A DNA stretch of 15,664 nt, from assembly GCA_046351655.1 (NCBI GenBank), contig JAXLYD010000072.1, positions 1-15,664 of the forward strand, in the 5' to 3' direction. The translations under genes and the position numbers were made by a program. The DNA comes from Polyangia bacterium (GTDB taxonomy: Bacteria; Myxococcota_A; Polyangia; Palsa-1104; JAEUJZ01). This document shows positions 10,187-11,058 of this stretch, piece by piece (within the stretch, counting starts at the first letter, position 1; each line of letters begins with the position of its first letter). The notes under the pieces were generated by a model that was not told the origin of the DNA, searched no databases, and worked only from the letters and a program-made list of their open reading frames with translations.

Positions 10187-10287
10187 CTGCGACGCCGCTT
10201 CGGCTTGGTACTGCGCGACGGCGCGACGGGGTGCCCGGCTGCGTTCCTGCTGCGCTTCATCCTCATCGAGCGAAATTTCCTAGCGAT

Positions 10288-11058
10288 TCATCCGCGGCGA
10301 TTTTCTTGGGCGCAGGTGGGGGCGGGCTCGGCGCTTGCGTCGGCTTGCTGTTGCGCCTGCATCTGCTGAAGCAGCTTCTGCGCTGTCGTCGCGCTTACCG
10401 TCGCACCGGATTCATCGACCGATGTATCAGGAACAATGTCAACGCCCGTCGGTGGAATGTAAAACTGGGTGTCGATGCCGCGGATGACGATGAGCTGACC
10501 GCGCTTGAGATCCTGTTCCAGGCCCTTTTCCGGCAGCGGCGTCGGACGTCCGTCTAGCGCTTCGGCGGTCGCCCGCGTAATCGCCGCCGATCGTGCCGTC
10601 ACTTCAAAATACGGCGCAGTCCGATCGACCGGACCATACACTTTGACGACCAGATACTGGCTGGCCGACAGCTCGTGGGCGTCGCGGACTTCGCAGCGCT
10701 GACCCGGGCGCAGAAAGAAACTGCACGGCCCCGGAATCATCGCGCGCGTGCCGTTCTTTAAAGGTCGCGCTTCATTGCGACCGACGCGGAAGCGGCCATT
10801 GGGCCCGCCATCGTTTTCGAGCAGCGGATTGAACAGCACCGCGTATTGGTGATCGCCGACCTCGATCATCATCTGCGGGCGGCCCGATGTGTCCTCGCGG
10901 AAGCTGCCTACCCCGTCGTCGATCACCACACGATCGGCAGCGGTTGGCGACACCATCGTCGGACCGACATGCAGCGTTACTTCGCCTTTGTCGTCGTCCT
11001 GAACCCACAGAAACTGTCGTTCCGTTACCGGAATCTTGCGACTGCCACGCTCGTTCAT
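10288..11058 (-). CDS. Major vault protein (MVP) homolog, N-terminal repeat portion (about 4 MVP repeats)
   Basis: 256 aa; ATG at 11058 with GGGGGGAGG 6 nt upstream. [28 protein letters not shown] resembles the MVP N-terminus [38 protein letters not shown] resembles [31 protein letters not shown]...QYLVV resembles the SFFLQPGE...DVYVLSEQQ repeat motif. Ends in a Q/A-rich low-complexity tail, then TGA. Confidence 0.8.
   Translation of the reverse strand: [256 protein letters not shown]

Follow-up and report, generated by a model that had tools for sequence, protein, structure and literature searches.

Proteins homologous to major vault protein (MVP) have been reported from database searches in Myxococcales, Cytophagales and Oscillatoriales (Sokolskyi 2019, bioRxiv 10.1101/872010). 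The window analyzed here, a 15,664-nt stretch of DNA from a Polyangia bacterium, carries such a homolog as two open reading frames (ORFs) in different frames, which raises the question of whether its vault protein is made in two pieces or whether one gene has been broken, in the cell or in the assembly. The initial annotation had left three options standing: a genuinely bipartite MVP, a recently inactivated gene and an error in the sequence. The first of these is dropped here. The other two are both kept, sequence error as the probable account and recent inactivation as a possibility of appreciable weight.

Two reading frames and a stranded segment of linker

Recomputation confirmed the coordinates and translations of the two ORFs, both on the reverse strand. 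ORF A (10288..11058 (-), 256 aa) consists of an N-terminal module followed by 21 out-of-frame residues and a TGA at 10290-10288, and ORF B (8123..10186 (-), 687 aa) carries the remaining Pro/Ala-rich linker, the vault repeats, the shoulder domain and the cap-helix coiled coil. The NCBI protein MFO0658086.1 (locus tag U0787_23860, 'MAG: Polyangia bacterium') has the same sequence as ORF B. The frames differ because the 872 nt between the two starts equal 2 mod 3. The TGA and the ATG at 10186 are 101 nt apart, a trivial difference from the 102 nt given before. Upstream of this ATG the ORF B frame stays open as far as a TAG at 10282-10280, and the codons at 10187..10278 (-) read EISLDEDEAQQERSRAPRRAVAQYQAEAASQ. 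They had been described as linker-like; they are coding linker in every intact relative and not a 5' leader. The 21-residue tail of ORF A was carried by no homolog in the protein search.

Because the stop of frame A comes before (5' of) the stop that bounds frame B upstream, ORFs A and B are not joinable by a single indel, which agrees with the earlier count of at least two changes; a single -1 frameshift or one programmed shift was rejected on the same ground. The initial annotation had overlooked the third frame. Across 10281..10349 (-) a segment of 69 nt, or 23 codons, belongs to neither ORF's frame, and its third-frame translation, SKPTQAPSPPPPAPKKIAADESL, is linker that is kept in relatives and is identical in the proteins P0039 and P0159-P0167. 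Therefore the lesion amounts to exactly two small indels, a -2 and a +1, separated by 70 nt. At site 1 (10349..10351 (-)) the TT of a Leu codon CTT is absent between 10350 and 10349, and at site 2 (10279..10280 (-)) there is one extra G. When TT is put back between 10350 and 10349 and one G is removed at 10280/10279, the whole gene (8123..11058 (-)) becomes one ORF of 978 aa.

At site 1 the window reads GCGCAAC--AGCAAGCC, and all eight loci of the same species together with a ninth, long-read-style assembly (L015) read GCGCAGCTTAGCAAGCC; relatives have GCGCAGCTNxxCAAGCC, with CAG-CTN in all 7 other species. Adjoining this site, at 10351, the window has a private synonymous G>A. At site 2 the window reads CTAGGAAAT and the conspecifics CTAGAAAT or CTAGAGAT. 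The intact sequence at the two break positions is CAGCTTAGC and CTAGAA, and the two k-mers that mark the lesion are GCGCAACAGCAAGCC and CGCTAGGAAATTTCG. The closest conspecific locus, L019, has the same flanking SNP alleles as the window (10290 T, 10277 A), yet lacks the extra G and is in frame. The T/C difference at 10290 is synonymous only in the third, authentic linker frame, and none of the three substitutions adjoining the indels alters an amino acid when read in the authentic frame. Neither indel site lies within a long homopolymer.

The 69-nt stretch between the indels is heavily diverged in other species and nearly identical in conspecifics. Import of the linker patch from a divergent allele was considered and rejected, since these 69 nt equal those of the conspecifics except for one SNP common to L019. 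Phase variation and transcriptional slippage were likewise rejected because neither site has repeats or homopolymer tracts.

One continuous gene in relatives and conspecifics

A genome scan with one genome per species gave 14 related loci from Myxococcales, Polyangia and Planctomycetota MAGs. The matches to ORF A and ORF B share a frame in all 14, and in each of the seven species-level loci where the junction is spanned and no element is inserted, the gene is one continuous ORF of 947-1014 aa (7/7). The linker of those relatives follows the pattern ...QMQAQL[S/A/T]KP..(P-rich)..APKK....E.L.L.DDE....RSRAPRRAVAQYQAEAA.QMVDQSARTRQRV...., and is highly variable between species in length and sequence.

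A search with the repaired protein returned 283 homologs at E<=1e-20. Of the best 120, 118 are single proteins of 907-1013 aa with a query coverage of ~95-100%; the sources of these 118 are Polyangium, Minicystis, Byssovorax, Polyangia MAGs and some further phyla, and several homologs bear the JGI annotation 'major vault protein'. The top match, P0039, is likewise 978 aa long, with 4 residues unlike those of the repaired window product. Its 90%-identity cluster contains seven full-length members of 978 aa (Logan, JGI, NCBI, ENA) with the linker ...QAQLSKPTQAPSPPPPAPKKIAADESLEISLDEDE..., two members that end at a contig edge, and P0163, which equals the window's ORF B and is the only 687-aa member. 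The repaired product differs from the seven independent 978-aa proteins at 2-6 of 978 residues.

The conspecific set comprised eight loci (L016-L023) from at least seven other samples, compared over 3.6-15.5 kb. DNA identity to the window is 99.0-99.5%, with L019 at 99.5%, and the 978-aa gene is intact in 8/8. Within coding sequence the window differs from these loci by no indels other than the pair in the MVP linker, each of them window-private. All other indels are intergenic, at 8060-8065, 7931 and 7257; the first of these, between the convergent stops of the MVP homolog and an EF-hand gene, is a T5 private to the window where all conspecifics have T6 or TTATTT.

In a collection of ~15 billion proteins no other assembly has a lesion-bearing product resembling ORF A or ORF B. 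Exact-product look-ups of the window's ORF A, ORF B and the two lipoproteins encoded upstream found none on record, and two exact-pattern scans of JGI metagenome contigs, with a 26-mer by site 2 and with either state of site 1, gave 0 matches; as neither state was found, these scans are uninformative. By the genome scan, the protein search and the conspecific loci, the split is not conserved in relatives.

A probable single-chain MVP homolog with a linker predicted to be disordered

The initial annotation had recognized the C-terminal ORF as an MVP homolog with repeats, shoulder and cap, and this was borne out by Pfam, by alignment to MVP and by a predicted helix. MVP_shoulder (PF11978) matches ORF B residues 348-458 (E 1.6e-18, 67 bits against a cutoff of 25), which are residues 639-749 of the repaired protein; Vault_3 scores 31.8 bits (cutoff 28.8) and Vault_4 23.2 bits (cutoff 22.9). 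By phmmer, repaired residues 380-934 align with residues 274-841 of rat/human MVP at E about 6e-21, a stretch that runs from the late repeats through the shoulder and along the cap helix as far as residue 841. These matches identify ORF B as a real MVP homolog. The description of ORF A as body repeats fares less well: Pfam gave no match to ORF A even at E<=10, and the paralogy of its residues 31-146 to ORF B residues 48-154, the first vault-type repeat (27% identity, E 9e-7), points only weakly to a repeat.

An AlphaFold2 model of the full-length protein, built on a 76-sequence alignment, has a mean pLDDT of 56. The shoulder and the long cap helix (about 640-918) are predicted with confidence, including a continuous helix over residues 751-918 (pLDDT 82-94 in both cases). 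Linker residues 238-352 fall below 50, and the N-terminal module is poorly modelled, with a pLDDT of about 30-50; this part of the model is unusable because all sequences in the alignment are at least 58% identical to the query. Pro makes up 21% and Ala 18% of the linker's ~120 residues, and the GC content of its DNA is 69%. The break thus falls in a low-complexity tether that is predicted to be disordered.

Like eukaryotic MVP (rat/human; PDB 4V60, 2QZV, 4HL8, 7PKZ), the repaired product is a single polypeptide of ~900-1000 aa, and the bacterial homolog has MVP_shoulder, Vault_3 and Vault_4 by Pfam. Overall sequence similarity is low, however, and any 78-mer vault shell of the bacterial protein is hypothetical. 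Unlike in the eukaryotic protein, Pfam detects no vault repeat in the N-terminal 235 residues, the repeat region is interrupted by the ~120-residue Pro/Ala-rich, predicted-disordered linker, and the gene adjoins genes for two paralogous lipoproteins, an EF-hand protein and multihaem cytochromes. From the bacterial homologs described by Sokolskyi there is no substantive difference: family, phylum and Pfam domains are the same, the best matches have 907-1013 aa, and the window copy is a member of the group with a private lesion.

Two polypeptides or recoding

A bipartite vault protein would mean that the ORF A and ORF B polypeptides assemble non-covalently and that the break is tolerated in the disordered linker. 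It is conceivable at all only because the break lies in this predicted tether, inside the segment with a pLDDT <50 (residues 238-352), whose length and sequence vary so strongly among species; a second, independent linker break, in the more distant relative L025, where 269-aa and 640-aa genes are called, also speaks for it. Set against this are the single ORF in all eight conspecific loci and in 118 of the best 120 homologs, and the signals for expression. GGAGG precedes the start of ORF A (11065..11069 (-), 6 nt upstream of the ATG) and the starts of both upstream genes (12899, 14791), whereas no GGAGG Shine-Dalgarno sequence was found upstream of the ORF B ATG at 10186. The sole promoter-like site in 9900-11400, at 11119-11091 (-), lies upstream of ORF A, and none was found for ORF B within that interval. 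In the intact protein the ORF B ATG corresponds to an internal Met, a position at which other species have I or V. Furthermore, 23 authentic codons are read by neither ORF, ORF A ends in a 21-residue nonsense tail, and no adaptive change accompanies the break. Nothing indicates that ORF B evolved as a second gene. Comparison with relatives largely refutes the bipartite reading, which we regard as very improbable. We give an equally slim chance to the wider proposal that linker breaks are real and tolerated, that the modules co-assemble, and that the window (by frameshifts) and L025 (by a TAA) reached this state independently.

Programmed recoding, that is, ribosomal frameshifting or transcriptional slippage that restores the full-length protein, has in its favor the open downstream frames and the intact third-frame segment, and nothing else. 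Two successive +1 shifts would be needed, since a single shift cannot bridge the stops, and neither site offers a slippery heptamer, a stop-stimulated +1 context with an upstream Shine-Dalgarno sequence, or an A/T run. The conspecifics all encode the protein directly and unshifted, and therefore no recoding signal is conserved. The chance that recoding operates here appears negligible.

Sequence error or recent mutation

The account that we consider probable, with modest confidence, is that the locus is one gene for a 978-aa single polypeptide whose linker frame is broken by two private indels that are consensus or assembly errors. The locus would then encode a single-chain bacterial MVP homolog with, in order, an N-terminal repeat module, the ~120-residue Pro/Ala-rich linker predicted to be disordered, the vault repeats, the shoulder domain and the cap-helix coiled coil; the frame would break inside the linker in this one MAG contig, by -2 and then, 70 nt on, by +1, and both indels would be local errors in a GC-rich MAG stretch. 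We infer error rather than real mutation for both of them, and since they are most likely errors, the organism probably makes a normal single protein.

One frameshift suffices to kill a gene, and consensus errors tend to cluster locally. Two indels and an adjacent private substitution within 75 nt of an otherwise undamaged, strongly constrained gene favor an artefact, a second independent frameshift 70 nt away being improbable in so young a lesion. An artefact is also favored by a repair that yields a 978-aa ORF nearly identical to independent proteins, by a lesion that is seen in no other assembly, and by the three private indel events, the T5 tract among them, in the window's 15.6 kb as against none in six other assemblies over a shared 6.5 kb. 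That the window is the complete contig (15,664 bp) of an NCBI Polyangia MAG points the same way.

Gene-fragmenting indel errors are a documented problem of long-read assemblies (PMC12007338). The window resembles such cases in draft and long-read (meta)genome assemblies in that a gene conserved elsewhere is laid out as two neighboring ORFs whose frames differ and comparison with close relatives restores one ORF by minimal edits, and the same gene is shredded by such errors in L015, the long-read-style assembly of the same species, where it is chopped into at least five called genes. It differs from them in having just two coding indels in ~13 kb of coding sequence, both outside homopolymers.

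L015 (ENA ERZ1714334 contig_451, 151 kb) shows about 270 (272) gap openings per 15.6 kb against the window, and nearly every one of its genes is fragmented. The short homologs P0016, P0022, P0031, P0033, P0034, P0036 and P0038, which ranked low in the first protein search, look like products of error-laden assemblies and not natural short forms. The idea that the window is a generally error-ridden assembly of this kind was rejected, since all its other genes are intact and each matches relatives in one frame.

Several points count against an artefact. Long homopolymers are the classic context of sequencing errors, and neither indel lies in one. In short-read de Bruijn assembly a path with all three changes would normally need the support of real reads, which weighs against an error if the contig was assembled in this way. 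Real disruptions of the MVP-homolog gene exist in relatives, as described below. In addition, private in-frame, mostly conservative substitution clusters in the window look real, so this lineage does undergo patchy real mutation.

These points bear on the alternative that both indels are real and that the MVP homolog of this strain was very recently inactivated, either by two quick hits or by one complex event that left a single patch with the substitution, the -2 and the +1. We consider it less than an even chance and yet a serious one. Apart from the lesion the assembly is clean and every other gene is intact; the indels are outside homopolymers; further private multi-nucleotide patches in the strain seem biological; and loss or disruption of the gene recurs in relatives (integrase elements, the TAA of L025, the truncation of P0151/P0156). 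On the other side, the gene shows no other decay. In comparison with the eight conspecifics the repaired window gene has a pN/pS of 0.03-0.06 (11-36 synonymous and 2-4 non-synonymous differences), and its only private non-synonymous change is the conservative D152E, a pattern that gives no hint of decay. For a gene of 2.9 kb on a terminal branch of ~0.3% divergence, two independent frameshifts at a spacing of 70 nt are improbable a priori, save as the outcome of one complex event, and the lesion occurs in no other assembly of the species.

As in young bacterial pseudogenes, the frame is disrupted relative to intact orthologs and both fragments are nearly identical to functional alleles. It differs from such pseudogenes in that the two lesions lie within 70 nt, relaxed selection and additional decay are not seen, and the case is known from one assembly. 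With no further decay, a pseudogene would be compatible only with a very recent event.

Other disruptions of the gene in relatives

Breaks of other kinds were observed in the MVP-homolog gene of several relatives. At L011:2251-6019 the gene contains a 3.75-kb insert flanked by a perfect 20-nt direct repeat, CGACCAGAAGAGCGGCATCT (codons for DQKSGI), and a tyrosine-recombinase ORF in the insert (Phage_integrase, E 1e-25) abuts the 3' gene half. An integrase also abuts the 3' half in L007:4744-5997 and L006:2715-3833, with the 5' halves on L012 and L013; the L007 and L012 halves are 13.3 kb apart on one contig (JBGAUT010000014.1). The insertion point is the conserved IDQKSGIY codons in three genomes, equivalent to 9529..9512 (-) in the window. 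The gene appears to be an attachment site for a family of integrative elements.

In L025:3395-6229 (GCA_024278345.1, JAJRTK010000494.1) an in-frame TAA lies in the same linker, ...MEQALQAQ*EFDEEHLAKK...VDQSARTRQ..., a lesion different from that of the window. The cap-helix coiled coil is missing from two homologs, P0156 (718 aa; 13 members in its cluster) and P0151 (737 aa), whose sequences diverge after ...DKWFNCENYIQV; they stop after ...ENYIQV and are C-terminally truncated. This observation covers L024:6001-8157 and L024:3287-3763 (JGI 3300060284 Ga0590114_0000163), on a 277-kb contig that also has a 158-aa gene with a Pfam match to Profilin, a eukaryote-type actin-binding domain. As these cases show, natural interruption of the gene is frequent, and the mechanisms differ from that of the window.

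Neighboring genes

Directly upstream of the MVP homolog lie two paralogous lipoprotein-like genes of 551 and 555 aa with 54% identity (14791..13136 and 12899..11232, both (-)). They have the signal peptides LSLGAC and LLMSAC and no Pfam domain, and the pair is syntenic with the MVP homolog in the nearer relatives, namely L001, L002, L004, L009 and all conspecifics. Seven changes private to the window fall within 15 nt at 14509-14495, turning QSIESF into QTIDGF. A further five private non-synonymous changes fall within 50 nt at 12389-12340, where one codon encodes D, Y or H depending on the strain and also varies in L023 and L015. These clusters could be a recombination patch or the result of diversifying selection.

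On the other side, convergent with the MVP homolog and downstream of it, is a gene for an EF-hand protein of 194 aa (7334..7918 (+)), followed by multihaem c-type cytochrome genes (7105..4676, 4766..3045 and 1796..735, all (-)) with Pfam MtrC/MtrF domain II/IV, Cytochrome_C7 and the Geobacter CxxxxCH motif. This EF-hand and cytochrome context is kept in the conspecifics and in L001, L004 and L007.

Implications

The locus is a caution: the striking reading as a bipartite vault vanishes on comparison with conspecific sequences. The deposited 687-aa protein MFO0658086.1 and the ORF A fragment are to be treated as pieces of one 978-aa protein. The split adds nothing new in kind, being either a non-biological feature or an ordinary young pseudogene. 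Were the two-piece reading true, it would provide a natural two-piece vault shell. If the lesion is true, the strain has just lost a gene that has also been lost or interrupted in several relatives. The part that deserves experimental attention is not the split; it is the underlying family of single-chain Polyangia MVP homologs with their long, predicted-disordered insert, already described in outline.
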